Shown here: positions 4,298-58,676 of the stretch, piece by piece | How positions within the stretch are numbered: position 1 is the stretch's first letter | Layout: the number at the start of each line of letters is the position of its first letter | Origin: an uncultured Chloroflexia bacterium | GTDB lineage: Bacteria > Chloroflexota > Limnocylindria > Limnocylindrales > CSP1-4 | DNA: 64,000 nt | Reading direction: 5' to 3' | NCBI GenBank assembly: GCA_963772995.1 | Contig: CAVYZQ010000005.1 | Coordinates: 12,409 to 76,408 of the forward strand | The notes under the pieces: generated by a model | What the model saw: only the letters and a program-made list of their open reading frames with translations | Database searches by the model: none | Told to the model about the DNA's origin: nothing | Translations under genes and position numbers: made by a program

Positions 4298-4747
4298 TCC
4301 CGAGTGCGCTGATCCCGGCGCCGGCCGCCGTGGCCGGGGCCGGGGCGGCGCCGGGCGGCGCCGCGGCGCGGGCGGCGCGTGGCGAGCGCTCGCGCCAGGA
4401 CGCTTCGAGGCTGCTCCCCACGTCCGGGGCCCAGCCGAGCGCGAAGCTGCCCGACGCGGGATGCTCGACGACGGTCGCGTGGGCGATCCCGTCGACGAAC
4501 ACGATCAGTGTCCCGGGGACGAACGGAGTGGCCGTCTGGAAGACGGTCGCCACGCCATCGGGCTCGGCGACGAGCTCGTACGAGTGCCATTCCGTCGCCG
4601 CGCGCGCGCCTCGGTGAGGCCCAGGAACGCGATGACGACACCGACCGGGGCGAGGGCCAGGGCAAGCGGCTGGAGGAAAAGCCAGCCGAGCACCCCGGCC
4701 GCGGCCACGGCCACGCCGGTGACGACGTAGCGCGTCGAGCGCGTCAT
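4248..4747 (-). pseudogene. Hypothetical membrane-anchored protein, one frame hop
   Basis: From ATG 4747 the N-terminus reads MTRSTRYVVTGVAVAAAGVLGWLFLQPLALALAPVGVVIAFLG (two hydrophobic helices, tail of ORF 4505..5332). After a hop in a (GC)n run near 4600 it continues into ORF 4248..4553 (EWHSYELVAEPDGVATVFQTATPFVPGTLIVFVDGIAH...). The 3' end is uncertain; as written it overlaps the GH13 3' end by ~50 nt. Confidence 0.4.
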
Positions 4748-4782
4748 GGAGTTCTCAATGGCGCCGCCAGCCCGACCGAGGG

Positions 4783-5652
4783 TCAGTAGACCTCGGGGAC
4801 GAACGTCTGGTCCGTGATGGGCGGGCGGATGTAGCCGTCGTCGGGCTGTCGTGGCGGGAGCTCGATGGGATCCGGCGTCAGGTCCTGGTACGGGATCAGG
4901 CCCAGCAGATGACGGATCAGGTTGAGGCGCGCCCGCTTCTTGTTGTCGGCGTTGACGACGTACCACGGAGCCTGCTTGATGTCGGTGTACGCGAACATCT
5001 CGTCCTTGGCTCGCGAGTACTCGGCCCAGCGGGCACGTGACTCGAGGTCCATCGGGCTCAGCTTCCAGCGCTTGGTCGGGTCCTCGATCCTGCTCTGGAA
5101 CCGTCGCTCCTGCTCTGCATCGCTCACCGAGAACCAGTACTTGACGACGACGATCCCGGAGCGGACGAGCATCCGCTCGAACTCGGGGACGGACCGGAAG
5201 AACTCGCGGTACTCCTCGTCGGTGCAGAACCCCATCACGTGTTCGACACCGGCGCGGTTGTACCAGCTGCGGTCGAAGAGCACGATCTCGCCGGCGGCCG
5301 GGAGGTGCGCGACGTAGCGCTGGAAGTACCACTGGGTCTTCTCACGCTCGGTGGGGGTGCCGAGAGCGACCACCCGGGCATAACGGGGGTTGAGGCTCAG
5401 GGTGACGGTCTTGATGGCGCCGCCCTTCCCCGCGGCATCGCGACCTTCGAAGACCAGGACGACCTTCATGCCTTCGTGGCGGATCCACTCCTGCAGCTTG
5501 ACCAGCTCGATCTGGAGGGTGGACAGCTCGCGCAGATACGCCTTGTTGGAGAGTGTCCGGACCGTCGCGCCGAGCTCCTCGACGGGCGGGTCGGACCAGA
5601 CGTTGGCCAGCTGGACGCTCTGCTTCTCCTGCTCCGCCTTCGACTTCGGCAT
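4783..5652 (-). CDS. ppk2: Polyphosphate kinase 2
   Basis: ORF 4783..5682, start moved to ATG 5652 (GGGAGG 6 nt upstream). PPK2 hallmarks FEGRDAAGKGG and DRSWYNR. Full length, no frame breaks. Confidence 0.9.
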   Translation of the reverse strand: MPKSKAEQEKQSVQLANVWSDPPVEELGATVRTLSNKAYLRELSTLQIELVKLQEWIRHEGMKVVLVFEGRDAAGKGGAIKTVTLSLNPRYARVVALGTPTEREKTQWYFQRYVAHLPAAGEIVLFDRSWYNRAGVEHVMGFCTDEEYREFFRSVPEFERMLVRSGIVVVKYWFSVSDAEQERRFQSRIEDPTKRWKLSPMDLESRARWAEYSRAKDEMFAYTDIKQAPWYVVNADNKKRARLNLIRHLLGLIPYQDLTPDPIELPPRQPDDGYIRPPITDQTFVPEVY

Positions 5653-17795: not shown

Positions 17796-17989
17796 ATGTG
17801 CCTGAACTGCGGCTGCGGTGACCCGAAACTCGTCACAAGGACAGCGACATCGTCCAGCAGGACATCCAGAAGGCCGCTGACGGCCAGGGCATGTCGAAGG
17901 ACGAGACGATCCAGAACATCGAATCCTCCCTTCAGAAGATGCGGTCGCAGGCAGGCAGCACGACCGGCGCCGGGACCAGCGGCTACTGA
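17796..17989 (+). pseudogene. Small protein with N-terminal MCLNCGCG cysteine motif, one frame hop
   Basis: ATG 17796 with GGAGGA 5-11 nt upstream gives MCLNCGCGDPKLV. After a hop near 17830 it continues HKDSDIVQQDIQKAADGQGMSKDETIQNIESSLQKMRSQAGSTTGAGTSGY, with stop 17987-17989. A strong hairpin follows. Confidence 0.55.
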
Positions 17990-18016
17990 CCCGACCTTTC
18001 TGATCTCCTCCTCACG

Positions 18017-18050
18017 CGAAGCCGCCGGGCGCGCAGGCCCGGCGGCTTCG
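18017..18050 (+). terminator. Stem-loop, probable intrinsic terminator of the small Cys-motif gene
   Basis: CGAAGCCGCCGGGC / loop GCGCAG / GCCCGGCGGCTTCG: a perfect 14-bp stem, 28 nt after the stop codon. Only a weak T tract follows (ACGTGTTCGG). Confidence 0.55.
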
Positions 18051-18235
18051 ACGTGTTCGGCGTGGGATGTGGACGAGGTGAGCCCATGCGGTCCGGTCCC
18101 GCGCCTGCGGACCATCAGCCCGGCCCCGCACGGCCTGATATCGACCACGAGCCTCCCCAGCTCGGCGGATCGCGCACGGCCCGGATCCCGACCGCGAGGC
18201 GCCCCAGCTCGGCCGGCCCCGCGTCAACAAATGGC

Positions 18236-18768
18236 AATCCTGGACGAAACGACGACCGGGCCGGCCGGCGGTGCCCGTACCCTGCTCCGCGGCTTGTGGC
18301 TGCCAGTCAGCACCGGGCCCTCGAAGCCCGCGCGAAGCCCGCGCGAACCCGTGTCTGGCGTCCGGATGGTGCGTGGCAGGCACAGATCCCGTCGGTGGAG
18401 CCCGCCGTGGCGAGGTCCTCGTGCGTTGGACGCTTCCGTGCTGACTGCCAACCACCATCGTGGGTCGCGTCCAGCGTGGGCTCGCGTCCATCCCACGGTC
18501 GTGGGGCTGTCACGCTCAGGGTCGCGCGTCTTCGTCGCCGGCACGCCCGTCGCCCCGCTTGCTCGTCGACCAGGCGGTCGACGGCGGAGGTCGGCACGCC
18601 CCGGATCACGTCCCGGTCGGCGGATCTGGTGTCCGGCCGTCGACGGCGGAGGTCCGCATCGCGTCCCTGCCGTTCGACGGCGTCACGTGGCGGTCAGACC
18701 GCCGCGGCGACCCTCGCTCGCGACCGGCCGCGAAGGCGGCCAGGTTGGCCTTCGGTCGAAGTCCAGCT
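18236..18768 (+). repeat. Copy A of a ~0.5-kb inverted repeat (non-coding element plus frame-broken stub of an OFOR gamma-subunit gene end)
   Basis: Hand alignment with the reverse complement of 25775-26292 gives about 22-25 differences over ~520 nt. The right end (18715-18768, minus strand) encodes [10 protein letters not shown] followed by a 4-nt deletion relative to copy B. Confidence 0.9.
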
Positions 18769-19450
18769 TGTACGTCGGCAAGACGATGCGAGGCGTCCCT
18801 CGGCTAGATCTGGACCGCCGGCACCGGCGCCTTCGCCTGGTCGCGCAGGGAGGCGCCGGAAGCGGACTCGGGGGCGCCACAGATCCAGGTCCCAGATACG
18901 GCGACGGACGGTCCGGGAGGGGGACCGGACCGTCCGTGCTGCGGGCCACCGTCACGAGTCGCCCTGGAGATATTGCGATGTCTGGAGGCCCCGGCGGGTC
19001 CTCGTGTCTCTCTGTTGCGTGCATACCGTACGGGCGGCCGGCATGCAACGCTTGATTGCCTCTGGCCGGATGGACATTGCAGCGGCATAACAATCCGGAT
19101 CGATAGGGCCCGGCCCCGGTGCCTTCGGCTCATCCCGTATCCACGCTCGACCGTCCGGCCCATCCCCTCGGCGACGCACGCTCGATGTTCATCTCGGGGA
19201 CTTCCACGGCCATACCGGAGACGCGCTGAACGCTGACGTCGCCGGTGTTGCGAGCAAAGCACATGGGGTGAGCGATCCGGGTCGGTCAAGCTCGTCCAGG
19301 ATCGTCGAAGCCGGTCGGATCCGCTGTCCGGCCGACCTCCGGCCCTAGCCGCGCCGAAGACCCTCAGATGAACATGTAGCGGTCACGCCAACGGTCAAGT
19401 GACCCCGAACAAGAGAATCCGCACCTGCACGCGGCCCCGAGACCTGCCCT

Positions 19451-24461: not shown

Positions 24462-25282
24462 CACCGACGAATGCGCCGACCATGCCCGAGACGACACCGT
24501 CGCGGACCCATCCGGGCCGGCTCATCTACGCGAAGCCGGAGTCGCTGACGGAGAGATCGAGCCATTACTGCCCCGGTTGCGGGCACGGCATCATCCACCG
24601 GCTCGTCGCGGAGCTCCTCGACGAGCTGGAGCTCCGACCCCGGACGATCGGCGTCGCCTCGGTCGGCTGCAGCGTCTTCGCCTACGACTACCTGCCGGTC
24701 GACTTCGTCGAGTCGCCGCATGGGCGTGCCCCGGCGGTCGCGACCGGCGTCCGTCGAGCCCGCCCCGACGCGTTCGTGTTCACGTACCAGGGCGACGGCG
24801 ACCTCGCCGCGATCGGGACCGCAGAGATCGTCCACGCGGCGGCCCGTGGCGAGCGGATCAGCGTGATCTTCGTCAACAACGGCATCTACGGGATGACCGG
24901 CGGCCAGATGGCCCCGACGACGCTGCTCGGCCAGCGGACCACGTCGAGCCCGACCGGTCGCGAGGCCAGCCTGGCGGGCTACCCGATCCCCATCACCGAG
25001 ATGCTCGCCCTCATGCCGGGCGTCTCGTACGCGGCGCGCGGGTCCATCGCCGACCCGAGCCTCATCGGCAGGGCCAAGGCGATGATCCGGCGCGCCTTCG
25101 AGATCCAGCTCGCCGGCGGCGGGCTGTCGATCGTCGAGATCCTCTCGACCTGCCCGGTGGGCTGGGGACTCACCCCGATCGAATCGATGGAGCACCTCGC
25201 CACGGACGTCGTGGCGACGTATCCCCTCGGCGTGATGGTCGATCGGATGGCCGCCCCGCGTGCACCACGACCGGAGGCCTGA
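24458..25282 (+). CDS. 2-oxoacid:ferredoxin oxidoreductase beta subunit (TPP-binding)
   Basis: ATG 24458 (ATGA overlap with the alpha stop) in the frame of ORF 24218..25282. CPGCGHG and the TPP motif [11 protein letters not shown]…[12 protein letters not shown]. Confidence 0.9.
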
Positions 25283-25286
25283 GCGA

Positions 25287-25835
25287 ATGGAGCACGGAGC
25301 GATCGTCTGCGGGTTCGGCGGCCAGGGGATCCTGTTCGCCGGCAAGGTTCTCGCCCAGGCCGCGATGCTCGAGGGTCGCGCGGTGTCGTGGATGCCGTCG
25401 TACGGCCCGGAGATGCGCGGCGGGACCGCGTCATGCACGGTCGTCATCGCGGATCGCCCGATCGGCTCGCCGATCGTCGACCTGGCCGACAGCGTGATCG
25501 CCCTCAACCCGCCCTCGATGGCCAAGTACGCGCCGCTGCTCTCGCCCGGCGGCCTCCTGATCATCAACGATTCATTGATCGAGGCTGAGCCGGAGCGGTC
25601 GGACATCGAGGCCGTGAGGCTGCCTTGCACGCAGCTGGCCCGGACGGCCGGCGACGACCGCTACGTCAGCGTCGTCGCGCTCGGCGGACTCGTGGCCCGG
25701 CGGCCGATCGTCACGACGGCGTCCGTGGAGGCGGCCCTGGCCGAGCTGGTCGGCAGCCGGCCGGAGATCCTCAAGGCCAACCTGGCCGCCTTCGCGGCCG
25801 GGTACGAGCGAGCGAGGGTCGGCGCGGCGGTCTGA
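25287..25835 (+). CDS. 2-oxoacid:ferredoxin oxidoreductase gamma subunit
   Basis: ATG 25287 in ORF 25260..25835. [22 protein letters not shown] and SYGPEMRGG. Confidence 0.9.
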
Positions 25836-26292
25836 CCGCCACGTGACGCCGTCGAACGGCAGGGACGCGATGCGGACCTCGGCCGTCGACCGCCGGACAC
25901 CGATCCGCCGACCGGGACGTGATCCGGGCCGGGCGGACCTCCGCCGTCGACCGCCTGGTCGACGAGCAAGCGGGGCGGCGGGCGTGCCGGCGACGAAGAC
26001 GCGCGACCCTGAGCGTGACAGCCCAACGACCGTGGGATGGACGCGAGCCACGATGGACGCGACCCACGATGGTGGTTGGCAGTCAGCACGGAAGCGTCCA
26101 ACGCACGAGGACCTCGTCACGGCGGGCTCCACCGACGGGACCTGTGCCTGCCACGCACCATCCGGACGCCGGACACGGGTTCGCGCGGGCTTCGCGCGAG
26201 CTTCGAGGGCCCGGTGCTGACTGGCAGCCACGAGCCGCGGAGCAGGGCACGGTCACCGCCGGCCGGGCCGGTCGTCGTCTCGTCCAGGATCG
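25775..26292 (-). repeat. Copy B of the ~0.5-kb inverted repeat; fills the convergent intergenic gap between the OFOR gamma and hemerythrin genes
   Basis: Reverse complement of 18236-18768 at ~95% identity. Begins in the last ~60 nt of the intact gamma gene (stop at 25835) and ends 24 nt before the hemerythrin stop (26316). Confidence 0.9.
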
Positions 26293-26315
26293 GCGGGGAC
26301 GCGGGCGAGGGACGC

Positions 26316-26789
26316 TCAGGACGCAGCGAGCGTCACCGGCACCTCGTCCATCAGCAGCGGCAGGAGGAAGCGCTCCTCGCGCTCGATATGCGCCCGCAGG
26401 AGTGCCTCGAGCGCGAACAGGTCGGCGCGCGCGGCCTGCATGTCCGCCTTCGCCGGCTGCTTGCGGAGACGTTCGCGCTCGGCCACGATCCTGCGCGCGA
26501 CGTCGCGGATCTGATGGTGCTCGAAGGCCATGGCGCGGGTCGCCCATGGCGTCCCCGCCCGGCGCTCGAACTCCGGGTAGAGCCAGGTCTCCTCCCAGGC
26601 CGCGTGCGGGATCAGGACCTCGTCGATCCAGTCGACCACGTCGAGCATCGCGATGCACATGTCCGGTGCGGCCATCGTGCCGACCGCCATCGCGACGTCA
26701 TGGATCCGGTTGATGCCGGGGGCGAGCTCCCGGTGCTCGCGCTCCTCGAACGCGTGTTCGGCGATCGCCCCGTGCGGAGAGTCCGTCAT
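26316..26789 (-). CDS. Hemerythrin HHE cation-binding domain protein
   Basis: ORF 26316..26789, intact. His/Glu ligand pattern: EHRELAPGINRIHD, HAAWEETWLYPEF, FEHHQIRD, HIEREERFLLP. Confidence 0.8.
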   Translation of the reverse strand: MTDSPHGAIAEHAFEEREHRELAPGINRIHDVAMAVGTMAAPDMCIAMLDVVDWIDEVLIPHAAWEETWLYPEFERRAGTPWATRAMAFEHHQIRDVARRIVAERERLRKQPAKADMQAARADLFALEALLRAHIEREERFLLPLLMDEVPVTLAAS

Positions 26790-56141: not shown

Positions 56142-56540
56142 TCAGCCGGCGGCGGCCGCCTCCCCGAGCGCCTGCTCGATCGCCTCGGCGAGACGCGCAC
56201 CGGTCGGGTTGCCCACCAGCGGCGTGATCCCGTGCCGGCCGGCGAGCTCGATCCAATCGGGCTCCATGCCGGTCGCGGTCAGCACGACGGGAACGTCGGG
56301 GTGGATCTCGCGAAGCCCTTCGATCAGGCGCTGGGCGCCATCGGGCTCGCCGGTCGCGAAGGCGTCGTAGACGAGGACGTCGGCCGCTTCGGCCATATCG
56401 CAGTAGCGCCCCGAGAGCACCGGGCAGTGCGCCCCGATGGGGCCGAGGCATTGCTGGACCTCGTAGCCGCGCCGCCGGAGCGAATCGGTCTCCTGGTCGG
56501 CGAGGTCGATGTCATGGTGGACGAGGAGGACCCTGGTCAT
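56142..56540 (-). CDS. Atypical receiver(REC)-like single-domain protein
   Basis: Met 49 of ORF 56142..56684 (ATG 56540). MTRVLLVHHDIDLADQE…VLVYDAF…VVLTATG has a receiver-like beta/alpha pattern. However, it carries a Cys-rich insert (CLGPIGAHCPVLSGRYC) and has no conserved Lys position. Confidence 0.45.
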   Translation of the reverse strand: MTRVLLVHHDIDLADQETDSLRRRGYEVQQCLGPIGAHCPVLSGRYCDMAEAADVLVYDAFATGEPDGAQRLIEGLREIHPDVPVVLTATGMEPDWIELAGRHGITPLVGNPTGARLAEAIEQALGEAAAAG

Positions 56541-56970
56541 CACATCGGCTCCCAATTCGGGTTGATCGACGCAGTCTGGGAGTCGTTCGGACCAGGTGGG
56601 AGGGCCGTGGGTCACATGGATGCGTGCCGAGCGCACCCAACGCTGGGTTGCGTCGCGGCCAGGCGAGGGCGGATGGCGAGCCATGGCGGCACATCGGCCG
56701 GTTGTGGCTGTCGGTCAACACCCTGTGGTCGGGCGCCCGTGCCGGGGTCTCGAACCGCCCGCTCGACCCGCCTCCGTGTCTGCCACGCACGGCCTCGGTG
56801 TCGAATCGGGCCGCAGACGCGCTTCGTTGGCCTGATGCTGACTCCCAGCCACCATAGCGGGACCGGTGACGGCGATCGAGGGCCCTCGTGGAGCCAGTCG
56901 CCTCCGACCAGCAGGCCGGGCGGTACGCTGTCGGCTCACCGACCGTGGGCGGCAACCGGAGGCGAACAGC

Positions 56971-57655
56971 ATGGCATCGACGCTCACGCGGCCGGCGATC
57001 CCCGCGGGGATCACGAGCGGCGGCGTCGTGGCCATCGGCCGACGGATCGCCTCGGACCGTGGCGCGCACATCCTCAGCGGCGCTCGCCGAGGGCGGCGTC
57101 CGCGCCTTCGAGCTGACGTTGAACGAGCCGGAGGCCGAGGCCCTTCGGTCGATCGAGGCCGTGGCGGACGGGGCCGCCGATGCCGGCATGGAACTCGGAG
57201 CCGGCACCGTCCTGTCGATCGAGGCTGCGCAGCGGGCGATCGACGCCGGGGCGACGTTCCTCGTGATGCCGCACCTGGACGCGGAGCTGGTCGGCGTGGG
57301 CGGCGGCCCGTGGCATCCCGGCCTTTCCCGGGGCGGCGACCCCGACCGAGAGTCCTCGCGGCGTGGCGAGCCGGGCGCCGCGGCCGTCAAGCTGTTCCCG
57401 GCCTCGTCGGCCGGTCCCTCGTTCGTTCGAGAGCTTCGCGGGCCATTCCCGGACATCCCGCTGCTGCCGACCGGCGGCGTGACGCTCGAGACCGCCCCGG
57501 CCTTCATCTCCGCCGGTGCCGTGGCGGTCGGGATGGGCGGCTGGCTGCTCGGAGACGGCGACCCCGACGGGATCCGCACGCGGGCGGCGCAGGTCACGGC
57601 GGCCGTCGCCGATGCCCGAGCGAGCCTCGCGCCCGCGCGGACCGGGCGCCCGTGA
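56971..57655 (+). pseudogene. eda: KDPG/KHG aldolase (Eda family), at least 4 frame hops
   Basis: ATG 56971 after GGAGG. …GGVVAI…ALAEGGVRAFELTLN…GAGTVLS…AGATFLV(M)P…AAAVKLFPAS…LLPTGGVT…, from ORFs 56866 and 56888 plus two short out-and-back hops around 57290-57390. Confidence 0.75.
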
Positions 57656-58676
57656 CGGAAGTCGTCACGCTCGGTGAGTGCCTGATCGCGTTCGTCGCCG
57701 AGGAGCCGGGGCCGCTGTCCGAGGCCGCGACGTTCCGCCGGTTCGTCGCGGGCGCCGAGGCGAACGTGGCCGTCGGGCTCGCCCGCCTGGGACACGAGGT
57801 GGCCTACATCGGGCGCGTCGGGGCCGACGGGTTCGGGGACACCATCGCCCGGCGGCTGCGCGGCGAAGGCGTCGATACGACCCACCTCAGCGCCGATCCC
57901 GATGCGCCCACCGCGCTCATGTTTCGCGAGCGGCGGATCCTGGGTCCCGCCCAGGTCGTGTACGCGCGGCGCGGGTCGGCCGGCTCGCGCGTGGACCGCG
58001 CGGACGTCGGGCGCGCGGCCGACGCGGGGATCTTCGACACGGACTCGATGGCTCCACGTGACCGGGATCACCCCCGCGCTCTCGGCCGAGGCGCGCGAGG
58101 CGACCGAGGCCGCGATGCGGCTGGCCCGCGCGCACGGGGCCACCGTCAGCCTCGACCTCAATCTGCGCCGCCGGCTTTGGTCGGACGCCGAGGCGGCTCC
58201 GGTCCTGCGCAGCCTTGCCGCGCTCGCCGACGTGGTGCTGGGAAGCCCGGACGAGCTGGCCGTGCTCGAGGAACGCCCGTCCGAGGTGGGCGCGCGCACC
58301 GACGATGCCGGCGCCGCCGATCGCGCCGCGGACCTCGCTCGCGCCGCCCTCGCGCTCGGCCCCTCCATCGTCGTCGCGAAGCTCGGCGCCGGCGGCAGCC
58401 TCGCGGTCGCACGCGACGATCCCGAGCGAACCGTCACCGCCCCGGCCGTGCCACTCCCGGTGGTCGTGGACCCGGTCGGTGCCGGCGACGCGTTCTGTGC
58501 CGGCTTCATCGCCGCCCGGCTCGAGGGTGCGGACCTCGCCGCTGCTCTGGAGGCCGGCAACGCGTGCGGCGCCGCGGCCGCGGCCACGCTCGGCGACCAG
58601 TCCGGCCTTCCGAGCCGTGCGGAGCTGGCGGCCCTGCTCGATGCCGGGCCGGCGGGCTCTCGACACGATCAGATGA
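57652..58676 (+). pseudogene. kdgK: PfkB-family sugar kinase (2-dehydro-3-deoxygluconokinase-like), at least 2 frame hops
   Basis: GTG 57652 overlaps the eda stop (GTGA). VTLGECLIAFVAEEPGPL…GAEANVAVGLARLG… (frame of ORF 56866), …HVTGITPALS…DPVGAGDAFCAGF… (ORF 57902). Ends ALDTIR with TGA at 58674-58676 (ORF 58215). Confidence 0.75.

Follow-up and report, generated by a model that had tools for sequence, protein, structure and literature searches.

The ~460-nt core between the convergent genes for an oxidoreductase gamma subunit and a hemerythrin-domain protein, which an initial annotation had read as a structured non-coding element of unknown class, is in our assessment probably a segmentally duplicated non-coding spacer that contains one REP/BIME-like DNA repeat, and not a structured-RNA gene. 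The locus belongs to an uncultured Chloroflexota bacterium and was studied within a stretch of 64,000 nucleotides of one contig, hereafter the window. The duplication history that would best account for it starts from the gamma/spacer/hemerythrin junction, which would have undergone two rounds of illegitimate (non-homologous) duplication. The earlier round would have given copy A, which is inverted, 0.52 kb long and 7 kb from the native copy B; the later one would have given copy C, which is 1.2 kb long and lies at a rearrangement junction of another contig. Within the spacer, positions 26067-26235 would represent one insertion of a genus-restricted ~160-nt intergenic repeat, which seems to behave as selfish or neutral DNA of the REP/BIME or MITE type, gained and lost at the DNA level and multiplied either by some enzyme or by replication and recombination at palindromes. 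If transcribed, such a repeat may incidentally serve as an RNA hairpin, and at this locus it might, for instance, form a barrier between the convergent genes.

The core had been placed between two convergent stop codons, and this description is accurate: the gamma gene stops at 25833-25835 and the minus-strand hemerythrin gene at 26316-26318 (Table 1). The former encodes the gamma subunit of a pyruvate/2-oxoacid:ferredoxin oxidoreductase (OFOR/POR). We likewise agree that the core is non-coding. Codon-position GC is flat through the spacer and reaches ~0.9 at the third position in both flanking genes, and the six-frame translations of the spacer are Arg/Pro/Gly-rich and interrupted by stops. 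A degraded protein-coding gene was rejected given this flat profile, the absence of any Pfam match in the six frames of the spacer at E up to 1, and the spread of the substitutions among copies over the three codon phases (3/5/3). A scan of the spacer for promoters and terminators found none. The neighbourhood of the gamma gene varies among congeners: in one of them a convergent GyrI-like gene lies 25 nt past the gamma gene (G010), and in others the hemerythrin gene is kilobases distant. When the gamma protein was queried against metagenome and genome collections, the best matches were ~76% identical, so that no close loci are usable for covariation; the same search identified the lineage as Limnocylindria-like Chloroflexota.

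Table 1. Features of the spacer locus, its copy within the window and the repeat-family members (window coordinates; a dot marks a feature without strand).
Feature	Position	Strand	Evidence or remark
OFOR/POR gamma subunit gene	25260-25835	+	Pfam PF01558, E = 2.9e-37; orthologs in 9 congeners
Non-coding spacer (~460-nt core of the initial annotation) between convergent stops	25836-26315	.	flat GC3; six-frame junk; no Pfam/Rfam match; fold z = -1.53/-0.52
Hemerythrin-domain gene, convergent with gamma	26316-26789	-	Pfam PF01814, E = 1.3e-14
Copy B, native, part common to copy A	25773-26290	+	repeat finding, own-genome search, BLAST, three-way alignment
Copy A, inverted, 0.52 kb	18237-18752	-	95% identity overall
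Two 23-nt direct repeats, GCGGACCTC(G/C)GCCGTCGACCGCC, starts 25872 and 25933	25872-25955	+	1 mismatch; 0/200 shuffles this long
16-nt tandem repeat (GATGGACGCGACCCAC), 2.3 copies	26036-26072	+	Tandem Repeats Finder
Repeat-family member in spacer	26067-26235	+	nhmmer E = 1.8e-25; covariance model R1 94.3 bits; alignment A2
Hairpin TCGCGCG-GGCTT-CGCGCGA, also an 11-nt tandem with 2.8 copies	26181-26199	+	lies inside a variable spacer of the repeat
Repeat-family member inside copy A	18292-18460	-	R1 98.6 bits
Independent third window member, divergent intergenic region	56700-56857	-	R1 100 bits; nhmmer

Two copies of the core had been described, and the inverted copy A does carry both of the 1-nt indels reported for it; a third copy, 98.7% identical to the native one and located on contig C29, had been overlooked. 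Copy A aligns to copy B in four ungapped blocks that are 93-97% identical, with 1-nt indels between them. It sits 7 kb from copy B on the same contig, carries a stub made of the last 62 nt of the gamma gene, in which 4 nt are deleted, and ends 25 nt before the expected position of the hemerythrin stop. Copy C (C29:147050-148248, 1,199 nt), recovered by a whole-assembly search and by BLAST with longer flanks, has its counterpart at 25530-26726 of the window and comprises the spacer in full, the terminal 306 nt of gamma, frameshifted (+1) at 25600, and the 3' 411 nt of the hemerythrin gene. It is embedded in the middle of a 242-kb contig with unique genes on either side: one end adjoins a truncated sigma-70 region-2 (ECF-type) gene, which matches positions 1-41 of the 71-position profile, and the other follows a multihaem cytochrome c gene. 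Extended homology and mobility genes are absent from the junctions of both copies. Because copies A and C carry dead gene fragments, they appear to be relics and not selected units. We also observed that the hemerythrin fragment of copy C retains an in-frame ATG, so that production of a shortened hemerythrin is still conceivable.

Identity is 98.7% between copies B and C and 95% between copy A and either of them; copy A is therefore the older one. The third copy also assigns the 1-nt indel near 18626 to a deletion in copy B, since copy C agrees with copy A at this site. Between B and C, 6 differences fall in the 306 nt of gamma (2.0%), 9 in the 480 nt of spacer (1.9%) and none in the 411 nt of hemerythrin (100% at the protein level), so that the spacer diverges as fast as the dead gene fragment. 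Four of the five B-C substitutions in gamma are at third codon positions; together with the identical hemerythrin part, this bias hints that the copies diverged when the gene still worked, or else that gene conversion or a strain-level origin is behind the pattern. A diversity-generating retroelement was rejected, as the differences between copies are of all types, with no specificity for A, and no reverse transcriptase is found among the neighbouring genes. The inverted copies A and B (18237-18752 and 25773-26290) flank a 7-kb block with histidine kinase, glycosyltransferase and OFOR genes, and could allow this block to be inverted by homologous recombination. Around copy A, ~1.5 kb (17900-19400) show neither a codon-position GC signal nor a Pfam-bearing ORF, which is unusually long for a gene-free interval in this genome.

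The assembly holds over 100 pairs of repeats that are 200 nt or longer and share at least 85% identity. They include long inter-contig duplicates at 86-95% identity, and several consist of an intact gene and a broken fragment, so that partial duplication is a frequent event in this bin. Copies A and C resemble dispersed segmental duplications and pseudogene fragments in their truncated and frameshifted gene ends, in junctions devoid of extended homology and mobility genes, and in the existence of such other intact/broken pairs in the same assembly. Unlike what chance need give, copies A and C both retain the complete repeat element, which lies almost exactly at the centre of the 1.2-kb copy C; for this reason the element itself, and not chance, could drive or preserve the duplications. 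As for the individual pairs, long syntenic duplicates link C16 50797-71190 to C17 1-20343 and C15 39310-47203 to C16 1-7881, and further ones link C19 to C20 and C37, C22 to C34, and C30 to C6. Dispersed duplicates of 0.6-1.2 kb (C19 75034-76230 vs 56696-57904; C22 74093-76057 vs 71647-72198; C15 7553-8923 vs 4324-4974; C4 46228-46970 vs C13 23864-24605) have one copy that is an intact gene or junction and another that is broken or ORF-less, the same pattern as in the spacer copies.

The pairing and repeat elements highlighted in the core by the initial annotation fared unequally. The 10-bp helix between CAGTCAGCAC (26080-26089) and GTGCTGACTG (26214-26223) is correctly positioned and is a conserved feature. 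Its length is at the level of chance, since 34% of dinucleotide shuffles contain, within 250 nt, a perfect inverted repeat of at least 10 bp. Despite this, the helix is real, its arms being the inverted palindromic end units of the repeat at 26067-26235. They recur at ~20 other genome loci. The TCGCGCG-GGCTT-CGCGCGA hairpin is present in the spacer; other members of the repeat family lack it, and the region that holds it shows no excess of structure over shuffles. The two GTCGACGGCGGAGGTC-like boxes also lie where they had been described, and the 23-nt pair that they belong to (25872, 25933) is longer than in all 200 shuffles. The GGCGGT-CTG-ACCGCC hairpin over the gamma stop codon (25828-25842) exists as well; with 90 genome-wide matches at up to 2 mismatches, it is trivial. 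All three of these, the TCGCGCG hairpin, the boxes and the hairpin at the stop codon, are local features that receive no support from relatives. In a search of the genome, the 23-nt direct repeats were confined to the three spacer copies, and the 16-nt and 11-nt repeats were likewise found nowhere outside them. Direct repeats of this kind are typical of slippage in unconstrained DNA.

Could the whole ~460-nt core nevertheless be a single structured non-coding RNA of unknown class? It is non-coding, it is retained in three copies and it contains several local inverted and direct repeats. Against this, the two checks that the initial annotation had itself proposed, folding against shuffles and a search for homologs, both went against its proposal. 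The plus strand of the core folds at an MFE of -258 kcal/mol vs -246.7 ± 7.4 for shuffles (z = -1.53) and the minus strand at z = -0.52, neither value being significant. Among 60 related genomes (36 of them congeners), no homolog of the core DNA was found, the best non-self matches spanning at most 75 nt at E 8e-7 or weaker; an exact 22-mer scan of genome and metagenome collections with the core returned nothing, and a search of plasmids and phages returned only short chance matches. Only 26067-26235 has relatives, and the left 230 nt of the core have no homolog beyond the three copies. The view that the core fits no recognised RNA family holds, as no Rfam family matches the window at gathering score; positions 25600-26500, searched at E up to 1, give a single chance-level microRNA match, which lies inside the gamma gene. 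Nor does the core behave as one element: its edges are merely the two stops, the duplicated blocks run past these borders into gene fragments, its B-C divergence (1.9%) is about that of the dead gamma fragment (2.0%), and its 1-nt indels and substitutions follow no compensating pattern. We therefore hold a whole-core RNA to be extremely unlikely; the core is lineage-specific non-coding spacer DNA and not a structured RNA gene. A different doubt concerns the copies themselves, which might be artefacts of assembly or binning, strain variants having been mis-joined, in which case the triplication would not be biological. The bin amounts to 4.2 Mb, congeners being mostly ~3 Mb, and it probably merges related strains or species, or else carries very large duplications; it may mix strains, and copy C may then come from another strain than copies A and B. 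The size of the bin, the many inter-contig duplicates at 86-95% identity, the third-position bias of the gamma substitutions (4/5), which recalls allelic divergence of a working gene, and the absence of any difference in the hemerythrin part of copy C would all fit such an artefact. However, copies A and B stand 7 kb apart on a single contig, copy C is flanked by unique genes in mid-contig, and the substitutions, frameshifts and different end points are unlike a collapsed or chimeric repeat, which makes an artefactual origin highly improbable.

The only part of the spacer that recurs in other genomes, about a third of its length, belongs to a family of palindromic repeats. Of the sub-elements searched genome-wide, only the arms of the 10-bp helix are found elsewhere, as parts of a longer motif in which ~110 nt separate GGTGGCTGnnAGTCAGCACC from GGTGCTGACTGnCAGCCACC; the helix itself is the core of the two end units of 26067-26235. 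Searching with an HMM and then with a covariance model (R1) built from alignment A2, we found 20 full-length loci and 1 partial locus in the same genome. Members are 148-169 nt long, and strong arm matches in this genome are all inverted pairs 130-142 nt apart. Nearly all loci are intergenic, in convergent, co-directional and divergent contexts alike. The building block is a palindrome of 17-20 nt with the form GGTGnCTGnCAGnCACC, used three times per element. Two of the three lie at the ends, mutually inverted and bordered on their inner side by a TCGAA / TTCGA pair, and the third, of the form GGTGnC-loop-GnCACC, is central; the spacers between units are variable and measure ~45-55 nt. The outer units can pair into a stem of ~20 bp. 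In relatives the units simplify to GGTGACC-N3-GGTCACC, and among copies within one genome the interiors are strongly diverged and the ends conserved. The units of the studied member fall at 26071-26090 (5'), ~26143-26159 (middle) and 26213-26232 (3').

In addition to the studied member and its duplicate in copy A, the window holds a third, independent one (56700-56857). Its flanks are too distant for a nucleotide comparison with empty sites, as the congener orthologs of the flanking genes are only ~60% identical at the protein level. This member lies upstream of ORF 56142-56684, whose orthologs in congeners align only from residue ~45 on, so that the true start of this ORF is probably further downstream.

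The family is unevenly spread. With R1, matches were obtained in 17 of 40 congeners, the loci numbering from 0 to ~12 per genome, and 23 congeners had none; at the level of the class, 2 of 35 genera gave any match. The repeat is thus restricted to this genus and nearly absent outside it. The analysis turned up neither a transposase nor a target-site duplication nor an empty site, and mobility of the repeat is therefore suggested only by this patchy distribution and by its copy number. In one congener (G008, contig C110; L224 1190-1650), eight units of the form CGGTGACCCGCGGTCACCGAAA make up a tandem array with an exact 62-nt period, in which two types of spacer alternate and are similar within each type. 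A regular array of eight palindromic repeats recalls a CRISPR, but CRISPR spacers are unique and those of the array are of two alternating, mutually similar types, on which ground this reading was rejected. The comparison fails further in that the outer units in the genome under study are inverted and not direct, and in that the studied locus has no array.

Among known repeat classes, the family most readily invites comparison with the REPs. In the literature, REPs occur as inverted dimers 20-100 bp apart and as tandem clusters that include flanking DNA, their distribution is patchy, some families lack a dedicated transposase, and in classical REPs the palindrome is tagged at one end by a conserved tetranucleotide, GTAG or CGTC (PMC3733652). 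Set against the classical definition of an extragenic multicopy imperfect palindrome of 20-40 nt, the GGTGnCTGnCAGnCACC units qualify at 17-20 nt and 20 loci. The family further shares with the REP/BIME elements of E. coli and Pseudomonas the position of its short imperfect palindromes between genes, inverted unit pairs whose spacers measure tens of bases and which are foldable into one long hairpin, tandem clusters that sometimes include flanking DNA, and a copy number that varies strongly among related species. It differs from them in several respects. A GTAG or CGTC tag at a fixed position is absent from alignments A2 and A3, the loci number ~20 per genome and not hundreds, and the usual unit is a palindrome triplet that extends over ~160 nt with the conserved TCGAA / TTCGA pair. 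The Y1/RAYT transposase (PF01797) was found in none of 41 genomes of the genus by a search that was positive in 6 control genomes, and a REPIN/RAYT system was rejected on this basis.

Two further identities were weighed for the ~160-nt family itself. One is a MITE of the classical cut-and-paste type, which would be moved in trans through recognition of its ~20-bp terminal inverted repeats by a DDE transposase. Like the Correia/NEMIS elements of Neisseria and the ERIC elements of enterobacteria, the family is made of intergenic elements of ~130-170 nt in tens of scattered copies, which form a long hairpin when transcribed; its end units of ~20 bp, with 85% of cells paired, provide the terminal inverted repeats that define a MITE, its length is uniform (148-169 nt) and its copy number is patchy and variable. 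Unlike these MITEs, it shows no target-site duplication at its flanks, and no parent insertion sequence with the same ends is present in its own genome, where no arm pair encloses an ORF or spans a transposase-sized segment (the strong arms are all 130-142 nt apart). The internal third palindrome and the unit-sharing tandem arrays with their 62-nt period are also atypical of a MITE, as is the combination of strongly diverged interiors and conserved ends within one genome, and we consider a classical MITE very unlikely. The other identity is a family of functional RNAs. Its members would be small RNAs present in many copies, or hairpins that, once transcribed, terminate or stabilise neighbouring mRNAs, and the gamma and hemerythrin transcripts, which converge, would then be those served by the copy at 26067-26235. 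Several observations speak for it. The long terminal stem is conserved in all members, 83% of cells pairing in the proposed register vs at most 45% when the register is slid; 15 of 16 individual members fold below shuffles (z -1.8 to -4.8); R1 scores are higher forward than reverse at every locus of the genome and at most loci in relatives; and one pair of the end stem changes from G-C to A-U on both sides in 4 members. Three loci, the studied one included, lie between convergent genes, and absence from Rfam, where 10 other members gave no match at E up to 1, means that such an RNA would be undescribed. The better folding of members than of shuffles, together with the double change, makes a role of the end stem as RNA or single-stranded DNA possible. 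Against a functional RNA, the counts are 23 G·U and 23 A·C pairs, so that neither strand is favoured, and the covariation score (0.118) was reached by 172 of 500 pair-partner shuffles. The interiors are unstructured, the spacers having mean z of -0.36 and -0.11 in the genome itself and of -0.24 and +0.02 in relatives; for the 169-nt element at 26067-26235, the low z (-2.97 forward, -2.12 reverse) is due to its terminal inverted repeat. The flanks of the members hold no conserved promoter, terminator or U-tract, loci occur in divergent promoter regions too, and 23 of the 40 congeners do without the family altogether, others having arrays. Finally, the terminal inverted repeats of DNA transposons co-vary as well. 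On balance, we regard the functional-RNA identity as unlikely.

The probable reading thus stays with a duplicated spacer that harbours a REP/BIME-like DNA repeat, and it bears on how such loci are handled. The spacer is not to be labelled an RNA gene, and copies A and C are to be annotated as duplicated relics. The palindromic repeat family is previously unlisted and absent from Rfam, its host is an uncultured high-GC Chloroflexota genus, and it persists or spreads there without any RAYT-type enzyme. Repeats of this type are assembly breakers and markers of sites of recombination or rearrangement, potential transcript barriers, and usable as strain markers in soil metagenomes. A more far-reaching proposal is that the triple-palindrome element is a new type of non-autonomous element whose spread, needing neither a Y1 nor a DDE transposase, would come about through copying together with variable flanks (for example by template switching at the hairpin), copies A and C being snapshots of this process, and/or that it is an undescribed multicopy RNA of soil Limnocylindria-like Chloroflexota. 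We view this proposal as unlikely; the copying with flanks, if true, would bear on how REP-like repeats multiply without a dedicated transposase.

One weak arm-like match, considered as a candidate parent insertion sequence, was rejected as unrelated to the family. It lies in a 1.9-kb repeat present in three copies that are 94-98% identical (C2:12333-14236, C8:20884-22790 and C15:11168-13067), which reads as a group II intron, with a GTGCG 5' end, a reverse-transcriptase/maturase ORF and a YADD motif.
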